In this document: positions 6,047-39,014 of the stretch, piece by piece | How positions within the stretch are numbered: position 1 is the stretch's first letter | Layout of the letters: every line of letters starts with the position of its first letter | Source of the DNA: a virus | DNA length: 64,000 nucleotides | Reading direction: 5' to 3' (one strand) | Virus record (IMG/VR): IMGVR_UViG_3300022753_000060 | Position numbers and translations under genes: made by a program | The notes under the pieces: model-generated | What the model saw: only the letters and a program-made list of their open reading frames with translations | Told to the model about the DNA's origin: nothing | The model's database searches: none

Positions 6047-6472
6047 ATGGCAAAATGGTATGGAAGTGTAAACAATAGGTTAGAAGAAAATAAAATGTTC
6101 TGTGATAAAATAGAAGTAGGAACATTGTTAACTGAGTATTTCTACAGTGATTGTCATCCGTACGAAGTAGTTGAAGTTATAAGTCAAACACATGTAAAAG
6201 TAAGAGCTTTAGATTATAAACCAGCAGGCCCTGCAATGAGCAATGATTGGGAACTTGTACGCAACTTTAACAACTCAGTGGTAGAATTAAAAAAGCGTTA
6301 TGGTTTTTGGAATTGGGTTAAACGTTGGAAAAAAGAAGACTTAAAAACTTGCTATGTATTTCCAAAAAATAAAATTTATGATAAGCTTATTAAAGACGGT
6401 ATTGCTGTAGAATATATAAGAACAAATATAAGCTTTGGAGTTGGAGAATATTATTATGACTACACAAAATAA
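6047..6472 (+). CDS. hypothetical protein
   Basis: 141-aa ORF downstream of TTTAC..TATAAT promoter motif and RBS aaaggaga. Confidence 0.5.
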   Translation: MAKWYGSVNNRLEENKMFCDKIEVGTLLTEYFYSDCHPYEVVEVISQTHVKVRALDYKPAGPAMSNDWELVRNFNNSVVELKKRYGFWNWVKRWKKEDLKTCYVFPKNKIYDKLIKDGIAVEYIRTNISFGVGEYYYDYTK

Positions 6473-7389: not shown

Positions 7390-7614
7390 ATGAAAACTAT
7401 TTTAGAAGAATCTGAGTTGAGATCAGAATTATTGATAGAATTAAAAGGCTATAGGAAATTAGATAAAAACGTACCGCTTTATGAGAAAGGATATCATCAA
7501 TTGTTTGGAACATCATTACGCACAATGACTAGTTCGCAGATAAACGATATGCTTATATTTATAACTAATATGAGGTTGTGTTACGAAAATAGAAATTTAA
7601 ACTGTATATTATAA
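7390..7614 (+). CDS. hypothetical protein
   Basis: ORF track starts 7369, but RBS aaggagaa precedes ATG at 7390. Confidence 0.4.
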   Translation: MKTILEESELRSELLIELKGYRKLDKNVPLYEKGYHQLFGTSLRTMTSSQINDMLIFITNMRLCYENRNLNCIL

Positions 7615-7619
7615 TGTAA

Positions 7620-7940
7620 GGTCTTTTTCAGCCAAATAAAGGTAGACCTAAATGGATAGCGATGCTTTGGAACTTATAGTTTAAGGTAATTTAGGTGAGT
7701 TAAGTTATATCTAAAAATCAAGATGCAGACTATCGCTCCCAAGACAGAGAGAATTAAAGAATAAAGTATTTGGAATCATTTATATCTTAAGCTGTCAGAT
7801 ATAAATGATTGAGATCTATACGGACAGTATTCGCGAATGGCACCCAGGAAAGACTGGGGTATACGGATATAAGATCTTAAGGTAAGAGCCCTGAGTAAGG
7901 GAAGTGTCGGTTCGATTCCAACTATATCCCAAATTAATTA
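7620..7940 (+). ncRNA. candidate structured non-coding RNA with tRNA-like 3' module (7865-7930)
   Basis: No ORF. 3' part folds as acceptor GGATATA/TATATCC with T-arm GTCGG-TTCGATT-CCAAC, but only ~66 nt with a degenerate anticodon arm. Upstream 250 nt is rich in short helices (e.g. CCCAGGAAAGACTGGGG). Confidence 0.3.
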
Positions 7941-7994
7941 TAAGTAGCTACATAAAAGAGAATTAATTGACACTCTGGAAAGACAGAGATGCAT

Positions 7995-8113
7995 GGCAAG
8001 GTAGCTCAGCAGGAGAGCGCGTAATAATTGAATCTTGTAGAAAAGATTTGTAACTGCAACTCTAAAAAGGTCTTTTAAACCCGTGGTCGTTGGTGCAAAT
8101 CCAACCCTTGCCT
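7995..8113 (+). tRNA. tRNA-like gene with ~45-nt insertion (identity unresolved)
   Basis: Acceptor GGCAAGG/CCTTGCC, D-arm GCTC-AGCAGGA-GAGC, T-arm GTTGG-TGCAAAT-CCAAC, but ~70 nt between D- and T-arms instead of ~22. No CCA encoded. Confidence 0.4.
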
Positions 8114-8315
8114 CAATTAGTTTATTATATTCCATACTGTAATAAACTTTTTATGTTTTTATATATTTAAGGATTTTAATTAGTTTTTATTCATTAATTC
8201 TTTATTATCTCCTTATATGGTTCAATAAGATATAAAAACATATACTTTTGCCTATCTAAAAGTTTTGGCTAGTCTTTCAGATAGTTGCTTAGCTCTTTAA
8301 AACTAGCTGCGTTAT

Positions 8316-8452
8316 GCAGATATGGCGGAATAGGTAGACGCAAAGGACTTCTTCAATATAGGAACGAAAGTTACGAGTTCAATTCTCGTGTTGAAGACCA
8401 AAAATCCCTCGGTAGCAATATCGTATCGGTTCGACTCCGATTATCTGCACCA
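8316..8452 (+). tRNA. tRNA-like gene (Leu-type D-arm) with ~45-nt insertion; internal CAA-loop hairpin
   Basis: Acceptor GCAGATA/TATCTGC + A + CCA; D-arm TGGCGGAATAGGTAGACGC (class II/Leu-like); T-arm ATCGG-TTCGACT-CCGAT; internal hairpin ACGAG-TTCAATT-CTCGT. Total 137 nt. Confidence 0.4.
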
Positions 8453-8806
8453 TTACAATTAGATAAATCTTTAAAGTAGAAGATAATAGAAATATCAAAT
8501 CGTGTTCCAATCGCTACGTATTTCTGCCTACTTTAGAAGAGATTTAGCGGTCTCAAATTTCCTAAGTGTTTAGTAAGCATTGGTTGCAAGAAAGAGATTT
8601 AATTTAATTGTATTATATAAATAGATAAAGTCCAGATTAGACCCAATGAGTAATTTGAGGATGAGAGGTTTGGTTGTTGGCCGCAACTCCTAGGCGAAGA
8701 GATTGTCAGTAATAGAAGGAATTCTATTATCACTCACAAATTACAAGAGTTTGAGTATCATCAATTAGAGATAGGTTAGTGGCGCTCTATTATCTATTTG
8801 TTATAT

Positions 8807-8881
8807 TCCTCGGTAGCTCAGCGGTGGAGCACTCGGCTGTTAACCGATAGGCCGTCCGTTCGAATCGGACCCGGGGAGCCA
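8807..8881 (+). tRNA. tRNA-Asn(GTT)
   Basis: Cloverleaf: acceptor TCCTCGG/CCGGGGA, anticodon loop CTGTTAA, T-loop GTTCGAATC, CCA encoded. Confidence 0.8.
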
Positions 8882-9085
8882 TTAATAAGAAATAAATCCG
8901 ATAATACCAAGTTCTATTAGAAAGGTATTTACTCTAATTAATATGTGAGTTAATTAGATAGAGTAGTTCACAGTGGTTAATAGTTTCTTATTAAGCCAGG
9001 ATAGTTAAACAAGCAAATAATGGGTCTGTCGTGGGAATAACTAAAAACCCAAATGTGTCCTTTTGCGTTAAGGTTAAACGCACAA

Positions 9086-9160
9086 TGCGAATTAACTCAA
9101 TGGTAGAGTGGCTGCTTCATACGCAGTAAGTTATAGGTTCGAGTCCTGTATTCGCAACCA
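9086..9160 (+). tRNA. tRNA-Met(CAT)
   Basis: Acceptor TGCGAAT/ATTCGCA, D ACTC-AATGGTA-GAGT, anticodon stem GCTGC/GCAGT, loop TTCATAC, CCA encoded. Confidence 0.75.
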
Positions 9161-9419
9161 TAACCCTCTAACGACGGTTAGATAAAAATGCAGATGGGTT
9201 CGACATGACTTTGTGAGTTTCAAAGTAAAATCTCCGTTCCTTATGTAGAAAGCGGTAGGGTACATACGTTTTTAGAATTTTGACGAGACAAAAAGGTGCA
9301 CAAAAGTGGGAAGTTTGTATATTTGATGTTACACTATAAAACTGATAATAATAATTGATAAATCGAGTTTATATAATTTGAATAAACCAACCTATCATAT
9401 TATATAAAATATACTTTAT

Positions 9420-9495
9420 CCGAATGTAGGTCAGTTGGTAGACTGCGTGGTTTGGGACCATGAGGTCGGGGGTTCGAGTCCCTCCATTCGGACCA
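9420..9495 (+). tRNA. tRNA-Pro(TGG)
   Basis: Acceptor CCGAATG/CATTCGG, anticodon loop TTTGGGA, T-loop GTTCGAGTC, CCA encoded. Confidence 0.8.
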
Positions 9496-9497
9496 AT

Positions 9498-9573
9498 GCT
9501 TCCATGGCGCAATTGGCAGCGCAACTGACTTGTAATCAGTAGGTTGTCCGTTCGACTCGGACTGGAAGCTCCA
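9498..9573 (+). tRNA. tRNA-Thr(TGT)
   Basis: Acceptor GCTTCCA/TGGAAGC, D GCGC-AATTGGCA-GCGC, anticodon stem ACTGA/TCAGT, loop CTTGTAA, CCA encoded. Confidence 0.8.
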
Positions 9574-9882
9574 TAGGTGCTAATACCTTAGAGAATATAT
9601 TTAAGTGTACATAAAATATATTGATATTAAATTAGAAATTTGTGTATGGGTGCTACGAAGCCAAGGGACACATTACTTCAAGATGTTGCTCCTAAAATCG
9701 TGATTATATAATCAGTAAAAATCTCGAAGGGAAATGGTGCGGAAACAGCAGCTGTAGTTAAATGGAGTTAGATGAACTGCCCAAACACAATTAGACCTGC
9801 CTTGGATGATGGTCTATAAAATAAAAATGTAACGTCCAAGACCGTGGACCCTTAGCTCAGTTGGTTAGAGCTACCGGCTCAT

Positions 9883-10333
9883 CAAGAAGATTAAGAGGTA
9901 TTATATGGAAGAGAGTGCTGTTAAAGGAAATTGCGCTGAGCTTGCTTCAATGCATTATTTACAAAGTTTAGGTTGCGGAATATCAATTCCTTTTGGTTCA
10001 CTTAGATATGATTTTATTATTGATTATAAAAATAAATTATATCGTATCCAATGTAAAAGCGGAAAGTTAAAAAATAATGATGAATACTTGTATGTTCAAT
10101 TAACTTCCGGTAATAACAAAAGAGTAAAATTTTATGATGATTCAGAAATTGATTTCTTCTGTACAGCGATCGCTGGAAAATGTTATCTTTTGCCTAAAGA
10201 GGAAATTAAAACAAGAACATTTACGTTGAGATTAGTTGAACCAAAAAATAAACAAGAGCTCGGAATACATATGGCGCAAGATTACTTAGCTGATAAGATT
10301 CTTTCTTCCTTAAAATAAGCTCAATCGATGATG
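9883..10333 (+). mobile_element. putative group I intron in tRNA anticodon loop carrying homing-endonuclease ORF
   Basis: Insertion between anticodon positions 36/37; 5' splice after U, last intron nt G; contains 137-codon ORF 9905-10318. Confidence 0.5.
9905..10318 (+). CDS. intron-encoded small endonuclease, PD-(D/E)xK-like (I-Ssp6803I-like architecture)
   Basis: 137 aa with candidate active-site pattern E12 ... D36 (YDFIID) ... Q49-C-K51 (RIQCK). Lies within the tRNA(CAT) intron. Confidence 0.4.
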   Translation: MEESAVKGNCAELASMHYLQSLGCGISIPFGSLRYDFIIDYKNKLYRIQCKSGKLKNNDEYLYVQLTSGNNKRVKFYDDSEIDFFCTAIAGKCYLLPKEEIKTRTFTLRLVEPKNKQELGIHMAQDYLADKILSSLK

Positions 10334-10376
10334 AACCGGTTGGTCCGGGGTTCGAGTCCCTGAGGGTCCACCACAT

Positions 10377-10461
10377 GGGATGTTTGTCTAGCGGCAATGA
10401 CCTGAGACTGTAAATCTCATCTCTTCGGAGTTCGGTGGTTCGAGTCCATCACATCCCACCA
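10377..10461 (+). tRNA. tRNA-Tyr(GTA)
   Basis: Acceptor GGGATGT/ACATCCC, anticodon stem TGAGA/TCTCA, loop CTGTAAA, long variable arm, CCA encoded. Confidence 0.75.
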
Positions 10462-10723
10462 TTATATCTAGGTTAAATATTAGACCAGCCCGATATGGAT
10501 ACGGGAAAGTATAGGTGTAAATCCTATGGTATAAATAAGTACTTATCAACTTATAGTCAAAAGATAGGTGGTTTCATTAAGTACCAGAGATATGTCTCGA
10601 ATAAAGAGCTTAATCGATTGCGAATGTATCATATGTTAAGTTGCAGGTAAAGCTTGTAATCCAAAATAGCAAGTCGTATCAGTCTTATATTGTTAGTGAG
10701 GTGACTCCACATAGACATTTATA

Positions 10724-10799
10724 TAGCGGGGTGGAGAAGATGGAATCTCGTCGGACTCATTATCCGAAGGTCACTGGTTCGAGCCCAGTCCCCGCAACC
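10724..10799 (+). tRNA. tRNA(CAT), third CAU species (possible initiator-type, 1:72 mismatch)
   Basis: Acceptor AGCGGGG/CCCCGCA (A1xA72 mismatch), D GAGA-AGATGGAA-TCTC, anticodon stem TCGGA/TCCGA, loop CTCATTA, CCA encoded. Confidence 0.65.
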
Positions 10800-10802
10800 A
10801 TT

Positions 10803-10878
10803 TGTTCTCATAGTATAAGGGATTAGTACAAGGGTCTTCTAAACCTTAAATCTTGGTTCGAATCCAGGTGGGAACACC
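10803..10878 (+). tRNA. tRNA-Arg(TCT)
   Basis: Acceptor GTTCTCA/TGGGAAC, anticodon stem AGGGT/ACCTT, loop CTTCTAA, CCA encoded. Confidence 0.75.
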
Positions 10879-10881
10879 ATA

Positions 10882-10955
10882 TAGGCTTTTAGTTTAAAGG
10901 TAGAACAACAGACTTTGACTCTGTAGGTGGTAGTTCGATTCTATCAGAGCCTGCC
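10882..10955 (+). tRNA. tRNA-Gln(TTG)
   Basis: Acceptor AGGCTTT/AGAGCCT, anticodon stem ACAGA/TCTGT, loop CTTTGAC, CCA encoded. Confidence 0.75.
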
Positions 10956-11073
10956 ATTTCTTATATCTATTCCTTATTACGCGAGAGTTAGTCATTAAGG
11001 TGAGAATCAAGTACGATATAAGAATGTAACCATCGGCGGCGTAGTGGTAACTCAATAGGTGGTTACAAATTTT

Positions 11074-11147
11074 AGGCCCTTAGTTTAAAGGTAAAACTAT
11101 GGTCTCCAAAACCATTGTTGGAAGTTCGAGTCTTTCAGGGCCTGCCA
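11074..11147 (+). tRNA. tRNA-Trp(CCA)
   Basis: Acceptor AGGCCCT/AGGGCCT, anticodon stem ATGGT/ACCAT, loop CTCCAAA, CCA encoded. Confidence 0.75.
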
Positions 11148-11150
11148 AAT

Positions 11151-11224
11151 GCGACATTGGTGTAGTGGTAACATTCCTGCCTTCCAAGCAGTTGTCGTCG
11201 GTTCAAATCCGACATGTCGCTCCA
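11151..11224 (+). tRNA. tRNA-Gly(TCC)
   Basis: Acceptor GCGACAT/ATGTCGC, anticodon loop CTTCCAA, T-loop GTTCAAATC, CCA encoded. Confidence 0.7.
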
Positions 11225-11228
11225 ATAT

Positions 11229-11304
11229 AGGAGAGTGGCCAAATGGTTAAGGTTTCTGTCTGATACACAGAAGATTATAGGTTCAAGTCCTATCTCTCCT
11301 ACCA
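11229..11304 (+). tRNA. tRNA-Ile(GAT)
   Basis: Acceptor AGGAGAG/CTCTCCT, anticodon stem TCTGT/ACAGA, loop CTGATAC, CCA encoded. Confidence 0.75.
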
Positions 11305-11307
11305 TAT

Positions 11308-11383
11308 GCCTGGATAGCCTAGTTGGTCAAGGCAGTGGACTGAAAATCCACCCATCTTAGTTCGATTCTAAGTCCAGGCACCA
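11308..11383 (+). tRNA. tRNA-Phe(GAA)
   Basis: Acceptor GCCTGGA/TCCAGGC, D-arm AGCCTAGTTGGTCAAGGC, anticodon stem GTGGA/TCCAC, loop CTGAAAA, CCA encoded. Confidence 0.8.
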
Positions 11384-11386
11384 TGT

Positions 11387-11477
11387 GGTAAGTTGGGTGA
11401 ATGGTTAAACCAGCAGTTTGCTAAACTGCCGTAGGAAGCAATTTCTACTATTAGTTCGAATCTAATACTTACCGCCA
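11387..11477 (+). tRNA. tRNA-Ser(GCT)
   Basis: Acceptor GGTAAGT/ACTTACC, anticodon stem GCAGT/ACTGC, loop TTGCTAA, long variable arm, CCA encoded. Confidence 0.75.
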
Positions 11478-11483
11478 AAATAT

Positions 11484-11559
11484 GGCTCTATCGTCTAATT
11501 GGCTAGGACAGCACGCTTTCAATGTGCAAACAGGAGTTCGAATCTCCTTAGAGCTACCA
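11484..11559 (+). tRNA. tRNA-Glu(TTC)
   Basis: Acceptor GGCTCTA/TAGAGCT, anticodon stem GCACG/TGTGC, loop CTTTCAA, CCA encoded. Confidence 0.7.
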
Positions 11560-11562
11560 CGT

Positions 11563-11651
11563 GGAGAGTTACCAAAGCGGTCGTACTGGGATGGTCTTGA
11601 AAACCATTTGTCTGTAAGGGCACGGGGGTTCGAATCCCTCACTCCCCGCCA
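11563..11651 (+). tRNA. tRNA-Ser(TGA)
   Basis: Acceptor GGAGAGT/ACTCCCC, anticodon stem ATGGT/ACCAT, loop CTTGAAA, long variable arm, T-arm GGGGG-TTCGAAT-CCCTC, CCA encoded. Confidence 0.7.
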
Positions 11652-11859
11652 AGCCTGTTAGGAATGTGCACTTAAAACTAATGTTATGAATCCTAACTTT
11701 AAAAGCAGATGTTTTGGCTGTCTGATTTCAGAGTACAGATAAAACTCTTGTCCTTTCCTTGGGAGATAAAGGAGCTTCTTAATACTTGTCTTGACAGCTA
11801 AAAGATAATATCAATGTTCCTAACGCATTTATTTGAAGGTATATAAAGTTAGGGTATAT

Positions 11860-11936
11860 GGTCCGTTAGTTCAGTTGGTTAGAACGTCTGCCTGTCACGC
11901 AGAAGGTCAGCGGTTGAAGTCCGCTACGGATCGCCA
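11860..11936 (+). tRNA. tRNA-Asp(GTC)
   Basis: Acceptor GGTCCGT/ACGGATC, D GTTC-AGTTGGTTA-GAAC, anticodon stem TCTGC/GCAGA, loop CTGTCAC, CCA encoded. Confidence 0.8.
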
Positions 11937-12117
11937 TTTTTTACTGTATAATATAATATGAAGAAAAAATTTACTATGGTATTTCCTGATAAAACCATTA
12001 AATCAACTTTTATCAAAATAAGAGATGAAAATTTTATAAATATCATTTCTTCTAACCCAAGTAAAGTTTATAAAAATAAAAAGAAATATAGTAGAAAACA
12101 AAAACATAGGAGAGATT

Positions 12118-13389: not shown

Positions 13390-14895
13390 ATGACATTTTT
13401 ACAAGGATTAAAAAATGAATTAAATACCTCAACCACAGAAAATGGTGCAAAAGGGTATGCTGCTACTGGTAAAGCATTATTAGACTTTAACTTTAAAATA
13501 TCTTCATTTAGGGATTCAAGTGAAGAAGAAATTGAGATAGAATTTAAAAAAGCATGGTTTGAAAACAAAGAACTCGCTCTTAAATACCTATTCTATGCTA
13601 GAGATGCAAGAGAAGGTTTAGGAGAAAGAAGACTATTTAGAACATGTGTAACTGAAATTATAGATGAATTAGATGAAAGAGTATTTGATTGGATTGTTGA
13701 ATTTGGTAGATACGATGATTTATTTGTTTTCTTTGGTACTAAACTAGAAAAACAAATGCTTGAATACGTAAAAACCCAATTGAGAAAAGATGCTAAAAAT
13801 CTTGTTAATAAAGAGCCTATATCATTATTAGCTAAATGGATGCCATCAATAAATACATCTTCAAGCGAAACAAAACGAAAAGCAAGGAGAATTAAATCTT
13901 ATTTAGGAATGTCAGAAAAAGATTATAGAAAAATGCTTTCTGATTTAAGAAACCATTTAGATGTGTTAGAAAGAAAATGTTCTTCAAATAAATGGGAAGA
14001 GATAAAATATGAAAATGTACCATCTCAAGCTAACATAAAATATATGGGGGCATTTTTAAGACATGATGAAGATAGAAGAAGAGATTATTTATCTAAACTT
14101 GAAAAAGGTGAGACAAAAATAAATGCTTCAACTCTATTCCCTCATGATATAGTTTGCAAGTATAGAAATTGTAGAAATAAAGATATCACATTAGAAGAAT
14201 TATGGAAATCTTTACCTGATTATGTTCAAGGAGATAGTTCAACTATAGTAGTTAGAGATGGTTCAGGTTCGATGACTTGTAATGTAGGAAAGACTAGCAC
14301 ATCTGCATTAGATGTTGCAACTGCATTATCTATTTATTTTGCAGAAAGATGTAAAGGTGAGTTTAAAGATAAATTTATCACTTTTTCGAATCAACCAAGA
14401 TTAGTTTCTTTTGAAAAATATGATAATTTAAAAGATAAATTAAATGTAGCTTATGCAGAAGCAGAGGTTGCTAATACTAATATTGAAGCTGTATTTGATT
14501 TAATATTAAAAACAGCAGTTAAAAATAATATGTCTCAAGAAGAGATACCAAATATTTTAATTATATCAGATATGGAATTTGATGAATGTGCTACAACAAA
14601 CGCAACAAGAACTAATAGATGGGATCATACTGCTCCAGATGCTAAATTATTTGATGCTATAAGACAAAGATATGAGAATGCAGGTTATAAATTACCTAAA
14701 ATGTCTTTCTGGAATGTTAATTCAAGAACAAAGACAATCCCAGTAATTCAAAATGATTTAGGGGTAGCTTTAGTATCAGGATTTAGTCCAGCAGTCGTAA
14801 ATATGGTTTTATCAAATGAAATAGATCCATATATAGCATTGCTAAAAGAAATAACTAAAGATAGATATGCAGAAATTACATTAAAAACTGTATAA
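13390..14895 (+). CDS. vWA-domain protein (DUF2828/TROVE-like)
   Basis: 501 aa; N-terminal TENGAKGY...ALLDFNFK; MIDAS-like DxSxS motif VRDGSGSMT; C-terminal ILIISDMEFDE. Confidence 0.4.
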   Translation: MTFLQGLKNELNTSTTENGAKGYAATGKALLDFNFKISSFRDSSEEEIEIEFKKAWFENKELALKYLFYARDAREGLGERRLFRTCVTEIIDELDERVFDWIVEFGRYDDLFVFFGTKLEKQMLEYVKTQLRKDAKNLVNKEPISLLAKWMPSINTSSSETKRKARRIKSYLGMSEKDYRKMLSDLRNHLDVLERKCSSNKWEEIKYENVPSQANIKYMGAFLRHDEDRRRDYLSKLEKGETKINASTLFPHDIVCKYRNCRNKDITLEELWKSLPDYVQGDSSTIVVRDGSGSMTCNVGKTSTSALDVATALSIYFAERCKGEFKDKFITFSNQPRLVSFEKYDNLKDKLNVAYAEAEVANTNIEAVFDLILKTAVKNNMSQEEIPNILIISDMEFDECATTNATRTNRWDHTAPDAKLFDAIRQRYENAGYKLPKMSFWNVNSRTKTIPVIQNDLGVALVSGFSPAVVNMVLSNEIDPYIALLKEITKDRYAEITLKTV

Positions 14896-15215
14896 TATAA
14901 TAAGACACATACAGCAATTCTACATAAGGAACTTGAAATTCGTTTTATACTGTGTCTTGTAAAAAATAAGACCTTTACAGCAATTTTAAAAAACTATTCG
15001 TTGGGAGAATATCTTTTTCAGGTCTTGTAAATAATTTCGACAAGGAAAAGTCGCTTTAAAACCATGTTGTCCTATACCAACGGAGTGATAGGGTGTAGCG
15101 TTCCACTAGCAAACGTTTGGTTCTTGATAAGTGAGCCAATGATAAATTAGAGTAATCTTAACAAAAAGAATCTTGACACTTGCGGAAAGACAGCCAAGAA
15201 ACAACTTATCCATGT

Positions 15216-25014: not shown

Positions 25015-28000
25015 ATGCAAATTATAAAACGAGATGGATCAAAGCAAAAATTTGATGAGTATAAAATATGGAAAGCAATATTAGGTTGTTTTGAAGATTG
25101 TTGTCCTAAAGGTGAGTATGTTAATGATGGTGTGATAACAGAATTAACAAATAAAGTAACACAACAATTAGATAAAAGAAAAAATTATACTGTAGAACAA
25201 ATTCAAGATATTGTAGAACTAACTTTGATGGAAGCTAATAAATATGAACAAGCAAAAGCATACATAGAATATAGACAATTACATAAACTAGCTAGAAATA
25301 GTTATACTGAACTAATGAATAAAGTTAAAGCTAAACTAGAAGCAAAGAATGTAGAAAATTCAAATGCAAACCTAGATGAAAATACTTTCAGTGGAAGAGA
25401 GAAAGAAGCATTTGGAACTATATTAAAAGAATATGCACTTAATAATTTAGTATCAGAAACTACTAGAAATAATCATATTAATAATGAAATTTATATACAT
25501 GATTTAGATGCTTATGCAAGTGGTATGCATAATTGTTTATCAATTCCTTTAGATGATTTATTAGCAAAAGGATTTAAAGTTAAACAGACAGATATAAGAC
25601 CTGCTGGAACAGTAAATACAGCGATGCAATTGTCAGCTGTTATAATGCAATTACAAAGTTTATGTCAATTTGGTGGTGTATCATATACTCACTTTGATTG
25701 GTCAATGGTCCCTTATGTAAGAAAGAGTTTTTATAAACATTATAAAGAAGGATTATATTGGTTCGGTAATGAAAAGTATTTAGAAGGAATTACAAAAGAA
25801 ACTTCTATAATTGACGAAAAATATAAACTAAATCAAGATGCTTATGAATATGCTATGAGACAAACTGAAAAAGAAACACATCAAGCAGTTGAAGCATTAT
25901 ATCACAATTTAAATTCATTACAATCAAGAAGTGGACAACAACTACCATTTAGCTCTATAAATTATGGAACTTGCACTTTACCAGAAGGTAGAATGATAAC
26001 AGAAGAATTGTTAAATGTATCTATTGAAGGTTTAGGAAAATATCATAGAACAAGTATATTCCCTTGTGGTATATTCCAGTGCATGAAAGGTGTTAACAGA
26101 AAACCGGGCGATCCAAATTATGACTTATTTAAGTTAGCATTAAAATCAACTTCAAAGAGATTGTATCCAAATTATGCCTCAGTTGATTGGAGTGGTAATG
26201 CAGGTTACGATGTAAATGATCCAAAAACATATTTTAGTACAATGGGTGCTTTGAGTGGTCATGAACATCTAACAGTTAAAATAGGAAATGAAGAACCTAT
26301 TGACTTATCTATCAGAGACTTATTTGATTATTGTAAAACAGATGATTTACAAAATTATAAGAAAACACAGATTTGGTATAACAGAGAAAAATTAAATGAA
26401 GAGCCTTTAGGTAGACATTATCAAGAAAAATCTGGATTACCTAATCTACCAGGTGTTTATTCAATAACTTATTTACCAGAAGATGTCACATATATTGGAA
26501 GTTCAAGTTCTATTTCTAGAAGATGCGCTGAGCATAAATGTGCTATAGGCAAAACAGGTGGGATTGATGCAGGAATAAATTTTGGGGATATTGATACAGC
26601 TAATTATGAATTTAAAGTATTAGAAATAACTGAAGATTATAAAGAAGCTGAAAACCTTTATATTCAAAAGAATGCAAATATAAATCCTAGAGGAACAGAT
26701 AAGAAATATTATAAGTTAATTACTCAAAAATCTAGGCATAGAGTATATGATAGACCTGTATTTAAAGTTGATTTGAGTAAAAAACAAGAATTGATTGATT
26801 TATCTGAATTTGATATTAAAGTATTAGATAGAGATAATAAATGGGTAAAGATCAAACATATCTTTAAAAATGATAAATTAAATACTCCGTATATGATGCA
26901 TATCTATTACAAAGAATACGATAAAGAATATTGTTTGTCTTGTACTGAAGATCACCCTCTATGGACAGGAGATAAATTTACAAGAGCAGATCAATTAAAA
27001 ATAGGTGATAAACTTTATAGAGCTGATAATTTAGAGTTAGAAATAACTGATATATGTTGGCATTGGGAAGCAGTTGATAGCTACGATATAGGTACTGAAA
27101 CTGGTTCATTTATAGGTTCAGATATTATAATGCATAACTGTAGAACTGCAAATGGTTGGGATATTAATGGTTTAAAACAACAAAAAGATGGTAGAGGAAA
27201 TATTGCACCTACTACTATTATATTACCAACAATAGCAATGAAATCTAAAGAATGTACAAGAGCTTCAGAAGAATCAGATATAGATGTATTTATGAGATTA
27301 CTTGAATGTAAAATAAATGAAGCAAAAGACTCTTTGATAGAAAGATTTGAGCATATCTGTAGCCAATCACCTAAATCAGCCCCATTTATGTATGAAAATA
27401 ACACAATGGCTGGTTATATTCCAGAAGAAGGAATTAGGAGTGCTTTAAAACATGGAACATTAGTTATAGGTCAATTAGGTCTTGCTGAATGTTTACAAAT
27501 ATTAATTGGAAAAGACCATACTACAAAAGAAGGTATGGAACTTGCTAAAAAGATAGAACAATTATTTAAAGATAAATGTGCTTATTTTAAAGAACAATAT
27601 AAATTAAATTTTGGTGTTTATTATACTCCTGCAGAATCTTTATGTAAAACTGCTATGACTAAATTTAAAGAAAAATATGGTATTATTCCAAATATATCTG
27701 ATAGAAAATATTTTACTAATTCAATGCATGTTCCAGTATACCATAACATAAATGCTTTTGATAAAATAGATATTGAAAGTCAATTAACAGGTTATTCTTC
27801 AGCTGGGTGTATTACTTATGTAGAATTAGATTCATCTTCAATTCATAATATAGAAGCTATTGAAAAATTAGTTAATTATGCTATGGATAAAGATATACCT
27901 TACTTTGCTATAAACGTACCAAATGATGTTTGTATGGACTGCGGACATCAAGAAGAAATGAATGATAAATGTCCAGAATGTGGTTCAGATAATATTGAAA

Positions 28001-28110
28001 GATTAAGAAGAGTTACAGGATATGTTTCTACAGATTATCATAATTTTAATGAAGGTAAGATAGCGGAAGTAGAAGATAGAGTCAAACACACAGGAGTTCC
28101 TATTGAATAA
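25015..28110 (+). CDS. nrdD: anaerobic ribonucleoside-triphosphate reductase (class III) with an in-frame intein-like insertion carrying a GIY-YIG domain
   Basis: N-terminal ATP-cone (IIKRDGSKQKFDEYKI); C-terminal Zn ribbon CMDCGH...CPECGS and glycyl-radical motif RRVTGYVS; RBS aaggagga. Confidence 0.85.
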   Translation: MQIIKRDGSKQKFDEYKIWKAILGCFEDCCPKGEYVNDGVITELTNKVTQQLDKRKNYTVEQIQDIVELTLMEANKYEQAKAYIEYRQLHKLARNSYTELMNKVKAKLEAKNVENSNANLDENTFSGREKEAFGTILKEYALNNLVSETTRNNHINNEIYIHDLDAYASGMHNCLSIPLDDLLAKGFKVKQTDIRPAGTVNTAMQLSAVIMQLQSLCQFGGVSYTHFDWSMVPYVRKSFYKHYKEGLYWFGNEKYLEGITKETSIIDEKYKLNQDAYEYAMRQTEKETHQAVEALYHNLNSLQSRSGQQLPFSSINYGTCTLPEGRMITEELLNVSIEGLGKYHRTSIFPCGIFQCMKGVNRKPGDPNYDLFKLALKSTSKRLYPNYASVDWSGNAGYDVNDPKTYFSTMGALSGHEHLTVKIGNEEPIDLSIRDLFDYCKTDDLQNYKKTQIWYNREKLNEEPLGRHYQEKSGLPNLPGVYSITYLPEDVTYIGSSSSISRRCAEHKCAIGKTGGIDAGINFGDIDTANYEFKVLEITEDYKEAENLYIQKNANINPRGTDKKYYKLITQKSRHRVYDRPVFKVDLSKKQELIDLSEFDIKVLDRDNKWVKIKHIFKNDKLNTPYMMHIYYKEYDKEYCLSCTEDHPLWTGDKFTRADQLKIGDKLYRADNLELEITDICWHWEAVDSYDIGTETGSFIGSDIIMHNCRTANGWDINGLKQQKDGRGNIAPTTIILPTIAMKSKECTRASEESDIDVFMRLLECKINEAKDSLIERFEHICSQSPKSAPFMYENNTMAGYIPEEGIRSALKHGTLVIGQLGLAECLQILIGKDHTTKEGMELAKKIEQLFKDKCAYFKEQYKLNFGVYYTPAESLCKTAMTKFKEKYGIIPNISDRKYFTNSMHVPVYHNINAFDKIDIESQLTGYSSAGCITYVELDSSSIHNIEAIEKLVNYAMDKDIPYFAINVPNDVCMDCGHQEEMNDKCPECGSDNIERLRRVTGYVSTDYHNFNEGKIAEVEDRVKHTGVPIE
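26248..27138 (+). other. intein-like (Hint) element within nrdD, class-2-like (Ala1, +1 Cys), carrying GIY-YIG endonuclease domain
   Basis: Starts ALSGHEHLTVKIGNEEPIDLSIRDLF (block A-like, Ala replacing Cys1). Contains GVYSITYLPEDVTYIGSS...RRCAEH (GIY-YIG). Ends ..GSDIIMHN followed by extein Cys (MG|...|CRTANGW). Confidence 0.55.
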
Positions 28111-31481: not shown

Positions 31482-32528
31482 ATGAAAATTATATTCATTA
31501 TTTTACCATTAATTTTATTAGCAGTAGGAATAACTTGGGCTTGTTTTTCTGCTAAGAATTTGAAAGGACAAAAAGAAGTTGATACTCAAGTTGCTGAATA
31601 TATTAGAGGAAAAAAGACAGTTACATATATTAAGAAACCAAAACTAATTCAATTGATTGCATCAAGCATACTTGCACTTGTAAGTTTCTTTGTGCTCATC
31701 ATAGTACCAGGTAGCTATCATCAGATTGAAGCAGGACAAGTAGCTGTAGTAAAGATTTGGGGTGAAGCTAAAGAAGTTAGAACTCCAGGAATGCATTTTG
31801 ATTTTTGGTTAAGTCATAAGTACGAAATTTATGATACAAAAGTTCAACAGTCGACTATTCAAACACAGGCATATTCTAGTGATGGACAAACGATGGATAT
31901 TGAGTTAGTAATTCAATTTCAAATTCAACAAGAAAATGCAATGAAAATAGCAACTAATTATGGTGGTCTTGAAATGCTACAATCAAGAATTGAAACAGTT
32001 GCTAATGAGAAAATGAAAAGTGTGTTATCTCAAAAATCCGCAATGAAAATAATTGAAACAAGAGCAACTGTATCACCAGATGTAGAAGAATCGATTAGAG
32101 CCGCAATTACAAACGACTATTATGTTAATATCACAAGTGTTGTATTAACAGATATTAGTTTTAGTGATGCTTTTGAAAAAACCGTAGAAGATAAGATGAT
32201 TGCAGAACAAGAAAAAATCAAAGCAGAGTATGAAAAAGAAAAAGCAATTATTCAAGCAGAACAACAACTAGAGGTTGCTAAAAAAGAAGCTGAAGCATTA
32301 TTAGAAAAAGCAAAGAAAGAAGCTGAATCAGAGTTAGTACTTGCACAAGCAGAGGCAGAAGCTCTTGAAATAATGAATGCAACTTGGAATACTTTAACAG
32401 CAGAAGTTAAAGAAGCAATTTTAACTCAAATGGCGATAGACAAATGGGATGGTAAGTTACCTGAAACATTAGTAGGGGATGAATTCCTTAAAGAATTGTT
32501 AGGTTATATTGGAGGTTCAAATGCTTAG
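31482..32528 (+). CDS. SPFH/band-7 (prohibitin/stomatin-like) membrane protein
   Basis: N-terminal TM helix, then HQIEAGQVAVVKIWGEAKEVRTPGMHF (SPFH core), Ala/Glu-rich coiled-coil tail. Confidence 0.65.
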   Translation: MKIIFIILPLILLAVGITWACFSAKNLKGQKEVDTQVAEYIRGKKTVTYIKKPKLIQLIASSILALVSFFVLIIVPGSYHQIEAGQVAVVKIWGEAKEVRTPGMHFDFWLSHKYEIYDTKVQQSTIQTQAYSSDGQTMDIELVIQFQIQQENAMKIATNYGGLEMLQSRIETVANEKMKSVLSQKSAMKIIETRATVSPDVEESIRAAITNDYYVNITSVVLTDISFSDAFEKTVEDKMIAEQEKIKAEYEKEKAIIQAEQQLEVAKKEAEALLEKAKKEAESELVLAQAEAEALEIMNATWNTLTAEVKEAILTQMAIDKWDGKLPETLVGDEFLKELLGYIGGSNA

Positions 32529-33141: not shown

Positions 33142-34230
33142 ATGTCTAATATAGATGAAGTAAGAACTCTAGCCAAATTAGTTGCTGATAAAATTAGAAA
33201 GGATAAATGTATGTTGAATATAAAAGAAATAATAAGTAAACCTGAGTATAGATGGCTAGAAGAATATAAAGATAGATTATGCTTCTTAGTTATATCAGGT
33301 TCTCATGGATATGGTACTAATGTAGAAGGTAGTGATATTGATATAAGAGGAGTTATGCTACCCACTAAAGATGAATTGATTGGGTTAAAAACTTTTAAAC
33401 AAAGAGAAGATTCGAGCACAGACACAACTATTTATGAGTTTAATCAATTTATCAAACTTGCTATGGCAAATAACCCAAATGTGATTGAAATGTTAGGTTT
33501 CAAACATTATCTTATATTTAATGAAATTGGGCATGACTTACTTGATAGTTTACCTTTATTATTAAGTAAAAAATGTTATCAAACATTTAATGGTTACGCA
33601 GTAGCGCAATTAAGAAAAATTGAAAATGCTTTAGCAAGTACTGAATATACTGAAGAAGAAAAAGTAAAACATATAAAGCAAACAATGGATGTTGCTATGA
33701 TGAAACTATCTGAATCAAACAAATTATTTGCAGACGGCTGTATAAATGTTACTGCAGATTTAGATAAACTTTATATTGACTGTAATATAAAACAAGCACC
33801 AATAGACCTAGTAAGAAGTTCTTTAAATGATATATTAACTATAGAAAAAAGTTATAATAAAATAAATCAAAGAAATACTAAACCAACTATGGAAAAATTG
33901 AATAAACATTGCATGCACTTATTTAGACTAATCATAACTTGTTGTGAGATACTAGAGAAAGGTGTATTAAATTCTTATAGAGAAGATGATAGGGATTTTC
34001 TATTGGATATCAGAAATGGTAAGTTTATAAAAGATGGTCATTTAACAGCAGAATTTACAAATACTTTAAATGGATTAAATAAAAGATTACAATTAGCAGA
34101 GAGACATTCTACATTGCAAAAAACACCTAATTATGATGAATTGAATAAATTTGTCACCGATGTAAACAGTAAAGTTATAACTGATACTGTATTAAAATAC
34201 AAAGAACCATTGGAGGAGATCATACTATAA
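33142..34230 (+). CDS. predicted nucleotidyltransferase (Pol-beta superfamily)
   Basis: ISGSHGYGTNVEGSDIDIRGV = GS-x(n)-DxD NTase motif; 362 aa. Confidence 0.5.
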   Translation: MSNIDEVRTLAKLVADKIRKDKCMLNIKEIISKPEYRWLEEYKDRLCFLVISGSHGYGTNVEGSDIDIRGVMLPTKDELIGLKTFKQREDSSTDTTIYEFNQFIKLAMANNPNVIEMLGFKHYLIFNEIGHDLLDSLPLLLSKKCYQTFNGYAVAQLRKIENALASTEYTEEEKVKHIKQTMDVAMMKLSESNKLFADGCINVTADLDKLYIDCNIKQAPIDLVRSSLNDILTIEKSYNKINQRNTKPTMEKLNKHCMHLFRLIITCCEILEKGVLNSYREDDRDFLLDIRNGKFIKDGHLTAEFTNTLNGLNKRLQLAERHSTLQKTPNYDELNKFVTDVNSKVITDTVLKYKEPLEEIIL

Positions 34231-36149: not shown

Positions 36150-37421
36150 ATGGAGATAAAATTACCAAAATATGTTGAATTACTAATAAACATGTTAAAT
36201 GAAAATGGTTATGCAGCATATGCAGTTGGTGGCGCTATTAGAGATTCTATATTAGGTATTGAACCAAAAGATTGGGATATAGCAACAAGTGCTTTACCTG
36301 CTGAAACAAAGAAACTATTTGAAGATAATAGTTTTCACAAGAGTGATATGGATATTTATTTTAAAGTTATTCCAACAGGAGAAAAATATGGCACTATGAC
36401 TATTGAAGTTATAGAAAAATATAAATTAAATAAATATGAACATCTTGCAGGTATTTATGAAATAACCACATTTAGATATGATAGCGATTACACTGATGGT
36501 AGAAGACCAAATAATGTAACTTTTGGTGAATCTATTATAGATGATTTAGATAGAAGAGATTTTACTATGAATGCTATTGCTTATAACCCATTAGTAGGTA
36601 TAGTAGACCCACATAATGGTGTTGAAGATATTAAAAATAAAATAGTTAAAGCAGTAGGAGACCCACAGGTTAGAATAAAAGAAGATGCTTTGAGAATTTT
36701 AAGGGGCATTAGATTTGCTTGTAAGTATAATTTTGAGTTAGAGAATGCAACAAGCAATGTTATAGCGGGTACTGGTAGTCTCTTAAAGAATGTATCAAAA
36801 GAAAGAATTACTGAAGAAGTTAAGAAGATATTAGAATATTCAAAAGGTAATTCTGAAACTTTAAATTCAACAATAGAAACACTAGCAGAGATATTTGAGA
36901 TACCTCAAAACAAAGTAAGTAAATGGGGTAGTAACCAGGTCATCATAGATATAGATAATGACAACCCACCTATGTTAAAGTTGTATTCAATATTGAATAA
37001 GTATAAGTCAATGATAGATGCAGAAATTTGGATGAGGTTATATAAATATAGTAACCAACAAATCAAAGAGGTTATTAGCTATTATAAGATGTCAAAGTTT
37101 ATGGAAGATGTTCAGCAACAAGATATTGTCCTAACAATCAAGCAACTATTCAATAAATTTGAACATGCATACGTATGCAAGTATTTGGGTATTTACACAA
37201 AAATAGAAGGAATAGATTTGTCAGAAATTACAAGTCAACCATATAGATTACAAGACTTGGCAATAGATGGGCACTTTCTTCAATCTACATTTGATATAAG
37301 TGGTGAGAAGATAGGTAAGGTTCTTAATTTCTTATTAGGCAAAGTTATGGAGAATTCCCAACTAAACACAATAGAAACTTTATCTGAAATTACAAGGAGA
37401 TACTTAAATGGAGAAAATTAA
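36150..37421 (+). CDS. cca: CCA-adding enzyme / tRNA nucleotidyltransferase (class II)
   Basis: AVGGAIRDSILG...DWDIAT (GGxxRD..DxD head), RRDFTMNAIAY; 423 aa. Confidence 0.7.
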   Translation: MEIKLPKYVELLINMLNENGYAAYAVGGAIRDSILGIEPKDWDIATSALPAETKKLFEDNSFHKSDMDIYFKVIPTGEKYGTMTIEVIEKYKLNKYEHLAGIYEITTFRYDSDYTDGRRPNNVTFGESIIDDLDRRDFTMNAIAYNPLVGIVDPHNGVEDIKNKIVKAVGDPQVRIKEDALRILRGIRFACKYNFELENATSNVIAGTGSLLKNVSKERITEEVKKILEYSKGNSETLNSTIETLAEIFEIPQNKVSKWGSNQVIIDIDNDNPPMLKLYSILNKYKSMIDAEIWMRLYKYSNQQIKEVISYYKMSKFMEDVQQQDIVLTIKQLFNKFEHAYVCKYLGIYTKIEGIDLSEITSQPYRLQDLAIDGHFLQSTFDISGEKIGKVLNFLLGKVMENSQLNTIETLSEITRRYLNGEN

Positions 37422-37831: not shown

Positions 37832-38389
37832 ATGATCTATAATAGCATTTATTTGAATAAAAAACATGAAAAAGTTTGTAAGGAATTCTATAAAAGGTTT
37901 GCTTACGGTGAACAATATTTAAGTTTGAATCATATTGGTGAAATAGAAGAGATGCCTAGAGATTATTATTGGCAAGAAAGAGAGGTATATAATATAATAT
38001 TACCTTATATAAATTTACTTAAAAATAAAGGGGTAAAGGATAAAGATTTATATGGCAGATATGGATTTGTATCTCTAGTATATAACCTACAAGTAGCTTA
38101 TAATAAAGTTAAAAATAATGCTTTAACAATTATAAATAGATATGCTTTCCCAACTGCTCTAATAGAAGATGGTTCAGTTGATATCGATAGCTTAGAAGAA
38201 GAGGGATTAGCTCCAGGGAAAATCTTAGTTTATAGACAAGGTGCTCAAAAACCAGATACTAGTCAGGATTTCTTAAAAACAGATATTTTATTTTCATTAT
38301 CTACTTATGAAGAGCACCTGGAAACTGAAATGCGTAAAATGTATGATTTATTCTTAGAAGGATGGTATAAAAACAATGAGAAAATATAA
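37832..38389 (+). CDS. hypothetical protein
   Basis: 185-aa ORF. Confidence 0.45.
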   Translation: MIYNSIYLNKKHEKVCKEFYKRFAYGEQYLSLNHIGEIEEMPRDYYWQEREVYNIILPYINLLKNKGVKDKDLYGRYGFVSLVYNLQVAYNKVKNNALTIINRYAFPTALIEDGSVDIDSLEEEGLAPGKILVYRQGAQKPDTSQDFLKTDILFSLSTYEEHLETEMRKMYDLFLEGWYKNNEKI

Positions 38390-39014
38390 TAAAATTGAAG
38401 CAATTTATGCAAGAGATGAAGAAACTAAAAAGACTATAGATAAATATAGAAACCCAACTATAGAATTTTTAAAAGATTTAACTTGGCAATTTACTGAAAA
38501 AGTGGATGGTACTAATGTTAGAGTTCATTGGGATGGTCATAAAGTAACGTTTGGTGGAAGAACAGATAATGCATCAATGCCTGCATTTTTAGTAAATAGA
38601 CTAAATGAATTATTCGGTGGTAATGCTAATGAAGAACTATTTGAACAAAAATTTGGTGAAATGGAAGTAACCTTATATGGTGAAGGATATGGACCTAAAA
38701 TTCAATCAGGTGGAGCTTATAGAAATGATGTAGATTTTATTTTATTTGATGTTCAAATAGGAGATAATTATCAACCAAGAGAATCTGTAGAAGATATAGC
38801 GAATTACTTTAAATTAGATATTGTACCTATTTTATTTGAAGGTCCATTAAGTAGAGGGATCAACTATGTTAAAACAGAAAGAAGAAGTGCTATAGCAAAG
38901 AATGGGCACTTGATTGAAGGACTTGTTGCAAGACCTAAATTTGAATTGAAAGATAGATGCGGGAATAGAATTATTGTTAAAATAAAATATGAAGATTTAA
39001 AGGATATATTATAA
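38376..39014 (+). CDS. ATP-dependent RNA ligase-like adenylyltransferase (Rnl2-like nucleotidyltransferase domain)
   Basis: Motif I EKVDGTNVRV (KxDG), III DFILFDV, IV HLIEGLVARP, V KIKYEDLK; 212 aa. Confidence 0.5.
   Translation: MRKYNKIEAIYARDEETKKTIDKYRNPTIEFLKDLTWQFTEKVDGTNVRVHWDGHKVTFGGRTDNASMPAFLVNRLNELFGGNANEELFEQKFGEMEVTLYGEGYGPKIQSGGAYRNDVDFILFDVQIGDNYQPRESVEDIANYFKLDIVPILFEGPLSRGINYVKTERRSAIAKNGHLIEGLVARPKFELKDRCGNRIIVKIKYEDLKDIL

Follow-up and report, generated by a model that had tools for sequence, protein, structure and literature searches.

We analyzed a 64,000-nt stretch of viral DNA (IMG/VR record IMGVR_UViG_3300022753_000060; hereafter the window), in which a tRNA array is headed by two unusual tRNA-like genes, tRNA1 (positions 7995-8113) and tRNA2 (8316-8452). 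The window is part of an AT-rich phage genome of ~154 kb (27% G+C). Every gene lies on the plus strand, as do the inserts and free-standing modules of the window described below. The source is a large gut or rumen phage of the Firmicute type. The two genes are followed by 16 ordinary tRNA genes at 8.8-11.9 kb, by a gene for a Ro60-like protein (13390-14895) and by a further tRNA gene with the anticodon UCA at 15.2 kb (15215). A preliminary description of the window, made from its sequence alone, had reported ~45 extra nucleotides in each of the two genes where the anticodon and variable arms should be, and had offered introns, ribozymes, an extra arm or tRNA-derived regulatory RNAs as explanations.

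Identification of the two genes and their relatives

ARAGORN in default mode overlooked both tRNA1 and tRNA2. In intron mode, the program found tRNA2 with a misplaced intron, called it Phe(AAA) and also produced chimeric calls. When the Rfam tRNA model (RF00005, gathering score 29) was used, an Infernal-type check that the preliminary description had proposed, both loci scored above the gathering score (40.6 bits for 7995-8113 and 38.5 bits for 8316-8449). In these alignments each gene had a single large unaligned block in the anticodon region (60 nt in tRNA1 and 54 nt in tRNA2). The 7-bp acceptor stems are perfect in both genes, as described earlier (GGCAAGG/CCTTGCC in tRNA1 and GCAGATA/TATCTGC in tRNA2). 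D- and T-arms are also present in both, but the T-loop of tRNA1, UGCAAAU, has G55 and is not fully canonical. Further, the extra nucleotides were found to be inserts of 47 nt (tRNA1) and 50 nt (tRNA2), and the arms that they had been thought to replace are present but split. No additional Leu or Lys tRNA was called within the array, as had been noted, and tRNA2 is the only tRNA-Leu(UAA) of the phage. In the codon usage, AAA ranks first (84 per thousand) and TTA fifth (55 per thousand). A scan for promoters and terminators around the two genes gave background levels.

Syntenic relatives (L012, L013 and L102) were recovered through neighbouring proteins. The product of the upstream open reading frame (ORF) 6047-6472 is 77% identical in L012 and 87% identical in L013, and the Ro60-like protein is 86% identical in L102 and 61% identical in the more distant L103. 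The tRNA1 and tRNA2 loci are conserved in L012, L013 and L102. Contigs nearly identical to the window are present in JGI and ENA metagenomes (the phage is contained in the samples JGI 3300018494 and ENA ERZ27248457), and no close relative was found among GenBank phages or in IMG/VR. BLAST searches of GenBank phages with the locus and 20 kb of the window returned only generic matches to tRNA-Asn and NrdD, the exact intron strings were absent from IMG/VR, and distant homologues of ORF 6047-6472 led to unrelated phages without tRNA arrays. We also scanned 82 metagenome loci anchored on homologues of the Ro60-like gene, together with the window, L012, L013 and other loci in hand, and obtained 68 distinct long tRNAs.

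The insert of tRNA-Leu(UAA)

tRNA2 is a tRNA-Leu(UAA) gene with an encoded ACCA end. The Leu-type D-arm and encoded CCA noted earlier were confirmed, and the gene also possesses A73 and a long variable arm (CGGTA-GCAA-TATCG). In L013 (11362-11448) and L103 (7097-7178), tRNA-Leu(UAA) is uninterrupted and has the anticodon arm AGGGA-CTTAAAA-TCCCT; the same gene has 50 extra bases in the window, L102 and L012. Because the L013 and L103 orthologues are uninterrupted, insert 2 can be placed exactly at 8351-8400, between U34 (8350) and A35 (8401), and the anticodon UAA arises at the CTT|AAAA junction once the insert is removed. These precise intron-less orthologues, together with the Leu identity features and the encoded CCA, give good support to the earlier suggestion that 8316-8452 is an intron-containing tRNA.

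Insert 2, a class II minihelix intron, itself resembles part of a tRNA. Its outer part is a 7-bp acceptor-like helix with the strands CUUCAAU (8351-8357) and GUUGAAG (8390-8396), followed by a discriminator A (8397) and, as the last three bases, CCA (8398-8400). A linker of 15 nt (AUAGGAACGAAAGUU) separates the 5' strand from a hairpin, ACGAG-UUCAAUU-CUCGU (8373-8389), that directly abuts the 3' strand and has a consensus T-loop and a closing pair of the G53-C61 type. This hairpin had been read as a Leu CAA-like anticodon loop. That reading was abandoned, as the hairpin mimics a T-arm and the intron-less orthologues give UAA across the junction.

Between the window and L012, insert 2 differs at only three positions, all of them in the terminal helix and all with pairing preserved. 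The helix in L012 is CUCCAAU/GUUGGGG, in which one U-A pair is replaced by C-G and another by U-G. The exons of tRNA2 differ at many positions, and some of these differences compensate one another in the acceptor, D, T and anticodon stems. Decay into pseudogenes without conservation of the insert, named beforehand as the outcome that would speak against functional genes, was not seen: the inserts are more conserved than the exons.

Minihelix inserts in other tRNAs

Inserts of this kind were also found in other tRNA genes. In L012, L013, L102 and L103, tRNA-Asn(GUU) carries a tRNA-like insert of 65-102 nt after CUGU, which starts at +1 of its acceptor stem and ends in NCCA; the orthologue in the window (8807-8881) has no insert. 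The anticodon stems of the Asn hosts show compensatory changes across the insert (TTTGG/CCAAA, GTTGG/CCAAC and TTCGG/CCGAA in the four genes), and the inner acceptor stem and other inner stems covary too. In L031, tRNA-Lys(UUU) contains a complete nested tRNA-like element (Rfam, 47.5 bits). A match to an HDV-like (theta-type) ribozyme (8234-8290; 40.5 bits, threshold 44) directly abuts the 3' end of a tRNA in the same locus.

A pattern search was made in IMG/VR for tRNA-Leu(UAA) genes in which U34 and A35 are separated by 35-65 nt with a final ACCA; it gave 13 contigs with seven insert variants of 47-52 nt. All of these inserts have a terminal helix of 6-7 bp stacked on a 5-bp hairpin with the loop GGCAGCA or GGCAGUA. 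In the alignment 92.9% of cells were paired, with double changes at eight of the 12 pairs, compared with at most 48% paired in slid controls. Seven of the 13 genes follow a Ro60-like gene of the same strand at a distance of ~100 nt, and this arrangement was also seen in L031. The class II hosts resemble genuine tRNAs in that A73 (Leu) or G73 (Asn) is present and CCA is encoded.

The insert of tRNA1 and the class I module

tRNA1 is a tRNA-shaped gene with the anticodon UUU, a discriminator U and no encoded CCA. Its orthologues lie at 11607-11726 in L012, 10877-10993 in L013 and 4933-5049 in L102. From the sequence and an in-silico deletion scan, the gene was divided into a 5' part (7995-8021), which consists of the 5' acceptor strand, the D-arm and anticodon-stem positions 27-28 (CG), insert 1 (8022-8068; 47 nt) and a 3' part (8069-8113). 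The 3' part comprises GGU-CUUUUAA-ACC-CG (anticodon at 8074-8076), the variable loop, the T-arm, the 3' acceptor strand and the discriminator. Insert 1 thus interrupts the anticodon stem on its 5' side, after position 28 and before position 29. An A/U linker comes first in the insert, then the hairpin GAAUCUU-GUAGAA-AAGAUUU (8030-8049), the heptamer ACUGCAA (8053-8059) and finally the linker CUCUAAAAA. No convincing pairing was found between the two ends of the insert.

Insert 1 belongs to a large family, which we call class I and which is carried by 54 of the 68 long tRNAs. In its members, an A/U-rich linker leads to a hairpin of 7-9 bp, and 0-3 nt separate this hairpin from the heptamer ACAGCAA (in the window, ACUGCAA), after which comes a U-rich linker. 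The module follows position 28 or 29 of the stem in Asn, Lys, Asp, Thr, Arg and GAG-anticodon genes; Pro-like and Gly-like genes have it within the loop, following position 32 or 33. In an alignment of 17 genes (A2), the stem pairs that flank the module covary.

A covariance model of the module alone (R1) was then used on 1.2 Mb of related contigs (E <= 0.1). There were 104 matches, every one of them on the plus (coding) strand, and 77 lay within a recognisable tRNA frame; insert 1 was matched at 8026-8064 (25.1 bits). The hairpin was paired in 91.4% of cases and had 116 double-change cells (shuffled mean, 29.5), and pairing in slid controls did not exceed 58%. A strict motif search by regular expression gave 115 plus-strand and 18 minus-strand matches, compared with ~15 in shuffled sequences. 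Thus, the covariation check that had been proposed for related phage loci showed that the insert helices covary and that both insert types recur. Class I genes differ from ordinary tRNAs at their 3' ends: NCCA was encoded in 11 of 57 module-bearing genes, compared with 126 of 142 ordinary tRNAs (84 of 93 in the same loci). Further, the discriminators of class I genes vary freely. The loops of the second type of Leu insert (L283-L295; L031 7267-7395) share CAGCA with the class I heptamer ACAGCAA, and CAGCA may be the same recognition element in both insert families.

The Ro60-like gene and its linkage to both insert families

The gene at 13390-14895 encodes a protein of 501 aa with the Pfam domains DUF2828 and DUF7788. 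It comprises a TROVE-like ring of HEAT repeats and a vWA domain with a MIDAS motif (DGSGSM in the sequence). An AlphaFold (AF2) model was built from 37 homologues (pLDDT 85.6) and compared with PDB by Foldseek. The top ten matches were all Ro60/TROVE proteins, including Ro60 of the Thermus phage phiLo (E 2.6e-7 to 1.3e-5; full length; TM about 0.55), and the next-best matches covered the vWA domain only. A sequence-only search of PDB with the DUF2828 profile returned nothing, and the fold search alone revealed Ro60. The model thus indicates that the DUF2828 protein has the Ro60 fold. RtcB had been considered for this 501-aa "RNA-binding protein" and was rejected, as the protein carries the DUF2828 and DUF7788 domains and is Ro60-like in fold. 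Our literature searches returned no account of DUF2828 function, nor of the splicing of tRNA-like introns in phages.

Class I modules are concentrated around this gene. Eighty of the 115 strict modules were located within 1.5 kb upstream of a Ro60-like gene, 51 of them within 0.5 kb. tRNA1 of the window precedes the gene by 5.3 kb and shares its strand, and two free-standing modules (14886-14922 and 14948-14988; R1, 21.0 and 33.5 bits) lie at or just beyond the 3' end (stop codon) of the gene, outside any tRNA frame. A free-standing module is found at the 3' end of the gene in relatives too (L102 11559; L012 19707). In another locus (L024 1529-1563), half a tRNA and a module are joined directly to the ribosome-binding site that serves the Ro60-like gene, a hint of autoregulation.

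The linkage was also seen in an independent sample of loci from IMG/VR and bacterial genome bins, chosen by the RNA pattern alone. A Ro60-like gene was present at 20 of 34 model-positive loci and at one of 45 loci with the pattern only, and in the loci examined it lay ~100-400 nt from the module on the same strand. The motif scan of bacterial genomes gave mostly chance matches; only clustered loci on contigs of Lachnospiraceae-type metagenome-assembled genomes were credible. Both insert families therefore flank the same Ro60-like gene, class I modules mostly upstream or at its 3' end and minihelix Leu genes downstream.

RNA-repair genes

The window encodes several enzymes that act on RNA ends. 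An Rnl2-type RNA ligase (38376-39014; Pfam RNA_ligase PF09414, E 2.4e-18), which matches T4 Rnl2 (1s68, 2hvq) in PDB sequence searches, is a candidate sealing enzyme. A protein with a P-loop kinase domain (AAA_33) and an HD phosphohydrolase domain (52388-53368; Pfam) is a candidate for RNA end healing. Further, there are a tRNA nucleotidyltransferase, the CCA-adding enzyme (36150-37421; PHROG 2244, E 8e-54), and RlaP, a Pol-beta-type nucleotidyltransferase of an RNA-repair pathway (33142-34230; Pfam PF10127, E 5.6e-18). A protein with PARP-catalytic and WGR domains (40341-41510) and an SPFH/Band 7 protein (31482-32528) are encoded among these genes.

Other features of the window

A tRNA-like element of 66 nt (7865-7930) precedes tRNA1. 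It has an "anticodon" stem of 4 bp and a loop of 5 nt, scores 25.6 bits with the Rfam tRNA model (below 29) and is identical in L012 despite differing flanks. A small hairpin with the loop GGAAAGAC recurs at 7843-7858, 7967-7988 and 15167-15193, and two of the copies are preceded by TTGACAC. These hairpins lie a few bases 5' of the unusual tRNA-like genes at 7865 and 7995 and of the UCA tRNA gene at 15215, and may represent promoters, processing signals or RNA motifs.

Within the array, a conserved leader of ~95 nt lies directly 5' of a tRNA gene, tRNA-Met in the window (8990-9085) and tRNA-Ala in L012 (12455-12547); it has no Rfam match. Other spacers of 200-270 nt (9160-9420, 9574-9845 and 10461-10725) also appear structured. 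In NrdD (25015-28110; 1031 aa), ~300 residues between 412 and 718 fall outside the family profile and may be an intein or an inserted endonuclease.

Discussion

Our reading, which we hold with moderate confidence, is that tRNA1 and tRNA2 are both insert-bearing, tRNA-derived genes of different use, tRNA2 containing a spliced intron and tRNA1 yielding a partner of the Ro60-like protein. For tRNA2, we propose from sequence comparison a genuine tRNA with a tRNA-like intron that would be processed by proteins. tRNA1 is most likely a tRNA mimic, a tRNA-shaped and Y-RNA-like partner of the Ro60-like protein, for which excision of the insert is also possible. We read tRNA1 primarily as a partner RNA because its module is tied to the Ro60-like gene, CCA is mostly absent and the discriminators vary. 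In such an RNA the split stem would stack and preserve the L-shape, and the module would project as a side arm of 47 nt. The earlier suggestion of an extra arm or a tRNA-derived regulatory RNA is thus the better description of 7995-8113, but for 8316-8452 the intron is the better one.

Several observations weigh against this reading. The minimum free energy (MFE) fold of insert 2 alone keeps and extends the terminal helix, with another inner pairing in preference to the T-arm hairpin; the z-score reaches only -1.7. The T-arm reading of insert 2 therefore rests on tRNA homology and the related inserts. The anticodon stem of tRNA2 has an A28-C42 mismatch in the window, which is missing from L102 and L012. 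Neither tRNA1 nor tRNA2 of the window is adjacent to the Ro60-like gene, as the tRNA array lies between them, and the Rfam Y_RNA and YrlA models had no match. Finally, three properties of tRNA1 favour a spliced decoder. When insert 1 is taken out in silico, CGGGT pairs perfectly with ACCCG and the loop becomes CUUUUAA. L012, L013 and L102 have retained the insert in their orthologues, where the loop is CUGUUAA; we conclude from this that tRNA1 of the window has shifted from Asn(GUU) to Lys(UUU), and UUU reads the top codon AAA. Further, the anticodon evolves faster than the remainder of class I genes: among orthologues that are >95% identical, four of ~12 differences (GUU to UUU, UCU or AUU) fall in the three anticodon bases of ~120 nt.

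These properties raise the possibility that both inserts are true introns, that the products are functional tRNA-Lys(UUU) and tRNA-Leu(UAA), and that the Ro60-like protein is only a chaperone or quality-control factor for these precursors, or a mere neighbour of tRNA arrays. Deletion of either insert in silico restores a canonical anticodon arm, the pairs flanking insert 1 covary across 17 genes, and the two tRNAs, otherwise missing from the array, would serve the first and fifth codons. The enrichment of anticodon shifts resembles selection on decoding, and a ligase, a kinase/HD enzyme and a CCA-adding enzyme are all encoded. However, class I genes mostly lack the encoded CCA that ~90% of ordinary tRNAs have, their discriminators are free, and the T-loop of tRNA1 has G55. 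Several class I families regain neither U33 nor a 7-nt loop, or only one of them, when the insert is deleted. The position of the module (28, 29, 32 or 33) and its linker lengths vary, so that a fixed cleavage geometry is not evident; free-standing modules adjoin the Ro60-like gene outside tRNAs; and none of the loci compared held an orthologue of a class I gene without its insert. We consider it possible, though rather unlikely, that both inserts are true introns. The anticodon varies among GUU, UUU, UCU and AUU between near-identical class I copies (L025, L027, L026, L028, L036, the window and L012). This fast change may reflect anticodon switching or an arms race with proteins that recognise anticodons.

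A third tRNA gene of the array is also split. In tRNA(CAU) (9846-10373), an insert of 451 nt (9883-10333) at CAU|AA consists almost entirely of a PD-(D/E)XK ORF (9905-10318), with just 22 and 15 nt of non-coding sequence. The best PDB match of the ORF is I-Ssp6803I, the homing endonuclease from the group I intron of Synechocystis tRNA-fMet. Rfam detected no group I core or ribozyme in the insert (8450-12100, E <= 1), and the orthologues in L012, L013 and L103 have no intron. With this third case, anticodon-loop insertions are frequent in the array, and the view that some of them are simply tolerated is kept alive.

It is conceivable on this basis that tRNA1 and tRNA2 were disabled by selfish mini-elements that are not spliced and are tolerated since phage tRNAs are dispensable. 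Insert 2 is present or absent among close relatives, and its similarity in the window and L012 far exceeds that of the exons, as is typical of mobile elements; the A-C mismatch in the anticodon stem would also fit. On the other hand, the inserts are kept, with compensatory changes in their own helices and those of their hosts, in phages whose proteins are 45-87% identical, and decay with loss of the insert sequence was not seen. Nor would junk be expected to keep so strictly to one strand or to be linked with a single protein family. We therefore regard disabled tRNAs as an improbable explanation of the two genes.

Comparison with known introns and Y RNAs

In tRNA-Leu(UAA) of cyanobacteria and plastids, a group I intron sits between U34 and A35. 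Insert 2 occupies the same site of the same tRNA but is 50 nt long instead of >200 nt, has no catalytic core or terminal G, and is a minihelix ending in CCA. It is thus possible to regard the inserts as remnants of the group I intron, or as small self-cleaving or self-splicing RNAs of a new kind. The invariance of ACAGCAA, as might be expected of a catalytic or recognition core, and the HDV-like ribozyme that abuts a tRNA in L031 would fit such an origin. However, no group I core (RF00028) was matched over 7600-8800 (E <= 5) or 8450-12100 (E <= 1), nor were the hammerhead, twister, pistol, hatchet or HDV-like models over 7600-8800 (E <= 5). The inserts measure 47 and 50 nt, which is too short for an intron of group I or II; even the smallest group I introns have ~200 nt. 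Both inserts end in A, whereas a group I intron ends in G after a 5' exon ending in U; tRNA2 provides U34 and the exon of tRNA1 ends in G. Further, the conserved parts, a hairpin with a single-stranded heptamer or a minihelix, are unlike known catalytic folds. The ribozymes considered in the preliminary description therefore found no support, and we judge a catalytic or group I-derived origin very improbable.

The inserts resemble the protein-spliced introns of Archaea and Eukarya in being short and without catalytic RNA. Those introns also occupy canonical or non-canonical sites, including the anticodon stem, and their removal, as would that of the present inserts, requires an endonuclease and an RNA ligase. 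A bulge-helix-bulge (two 3-nt bulges and a 4-bp helix) was considered and rejected, since none was found at either junction pair by inspection or in MFE folds. No EndA-family endonuclease was found among the ~40 window proteins scanned, and the ligase is of the Rnl2 type, not RtcB.

Short introns without a ribozyme in tRNAs of bacterial viruses have, to our knowledge, been reported once, in Lak phages, where they were left unexplained. These "enigmatic introns" of Lak megaphage tRNAs are tRNA-like (Devoto et al., 2019; PMC6784885). Like the present inserts, they are short, lie in the anticodon loop of phage tRNAs and have no Rfam match; some have a tRNA-like acceptor and T-arm. In both cases, the insert is nearly identical across genomes and its presence is variable. 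However, Lak introns have 80-114 nt, with a 5' hairpin and a linker before the 3' tRNA-like part, and end in CA, ACA or CTA, whereas the 50 nt of insert 2 are a minihelix and nothing else, from +1 to the final ACCA. No link to a Ro60-like protein or to RNA repair was reported for Lak phages, and the present host is a different, ~154-kb phage of the Firmicute type. When an anticodon-loop insert with a tRNA-like part and no Rfam family is taken to define the Lak type, tRNA2 belongs to it; the insert of tRNA1 has no tRNA-like part.

For the class I module, the closest parallel is the Y RNA. The genes of tRNA-mimicking Y RNAs (YrlA) adjoin Ro60 genes and share their strand (Chen et al., 2014; PMC4201824), and in phiLo two Y-like RNAs lie upstream of the Ro60 gene (PMC12135203). 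Bacterial and phage Y RNAs were identified by such genomic flanking, and we propose a partnership of the Y-RNA type because the modules, as a class, lie near a Ro60-like gene on the same strand. The two systems are also alike in that small structured tRNA mimics (YrlA, Yrl1/2) occur in several copies near a Ro60-fold gene, with RNA-repair genes as neighbours. In contrast to YrlA, the ends of which lie in the "anticodon" stem, tRNA1 has a full cloverleaf, an open acceptor end, a real anticodon loop and a putative protein-binding module in the anticodon arm. DUF2828 is a divergent family, in which the likeness to Ro60 was seen by fold comparison only. The motif GNCGAAN0-1G is absent from the class I module, and AACGAAAG in insert 2 fails its first G.

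A possible processing route

From the structure of insert 2 we infer a route by which it would be excised. An acceptor-stem -1/+1 junction with U at -1 and a 3' ACCA is the standard substrate of RNase P. Insert 2 begins at the acceptor +1 position, is preceded by U and ends in ACCA; for this reason we propose that RNase P would cut the 5' junction (8350|8351). A second endonuclease would cut right after the CCA of the insert. CCA inhibits the RNase Z of Firmicutes, which speaks against RNase Z at this 3' junction. The two halves would stay joined through the tRNA body, leaving a nick in the anticodon loop with 3'-OH and 5'-P, a break of the kind on which phage Rnl-type ligases naturally act. 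The Rnl2-type ligase of the phage would then seal the nick, the kinase/HD enzyme would heal the ends if required, and the product would be the tRNA for TTA, the fifth most used codon of the phage. The freed minihelix may act as a small Y-like RNA.

Each half of this route has a precedent. In plant mitochondrial t-elements and the mascRNA of MALAT1, an embedded tRNA-like element likewise sets the cut sites of RNase P and RNase Z, and Pnkp/Rnl repair in T4 likewise acts on a nicked anticodon loop (3'-OH, 5'-P). We know of no description in which the two are combined to splice a tRNA. If the whole route applied, the result would be a third type of tRNA splicing: a minihelix or Ro60-binding intron would be cut out by RNase P and an RNase Z-like enzyme, Rnl2 would seal the exons, and the freed intron, or else the precursor with its insert, would serve as the Y RNA of a viral Ro60. 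As a whole we regard this as unlikely. If true, it would tie the provision of the tRNAs in highest demand (Lys, Asn and Leu) to an RNA-surveillance or anti-defence particle.

Implications

These results extend Lak-type introns to another phage group and to a minimal minihelix-ACCA form, with its anatomy, exact boundaries and candidate enzymes. They also identify a second, widespread module, hairpin-ACAGCAA, and tie both insert families to a divergent viral Ro60, the DUF2828 protein, which belongs to a Pfam family of unknown function with at least 8000 metagenome members. The sequences thus suggest that tRNA introns or tRNA mimics are connected, in a way not described before, with a viral system of the Ro60/Y-RNA type. 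Because standard tools miss such genes or mis-assign their anticodons, hairpin-ACAGCAA and minihelix-ACCA, which are simple searchable signatures, would improve the annotation of phage tRNAs. Further, the removal of introns from phage tRNAs and the RNA partners of divergent viral Ro60 proteins become directly testable questions.

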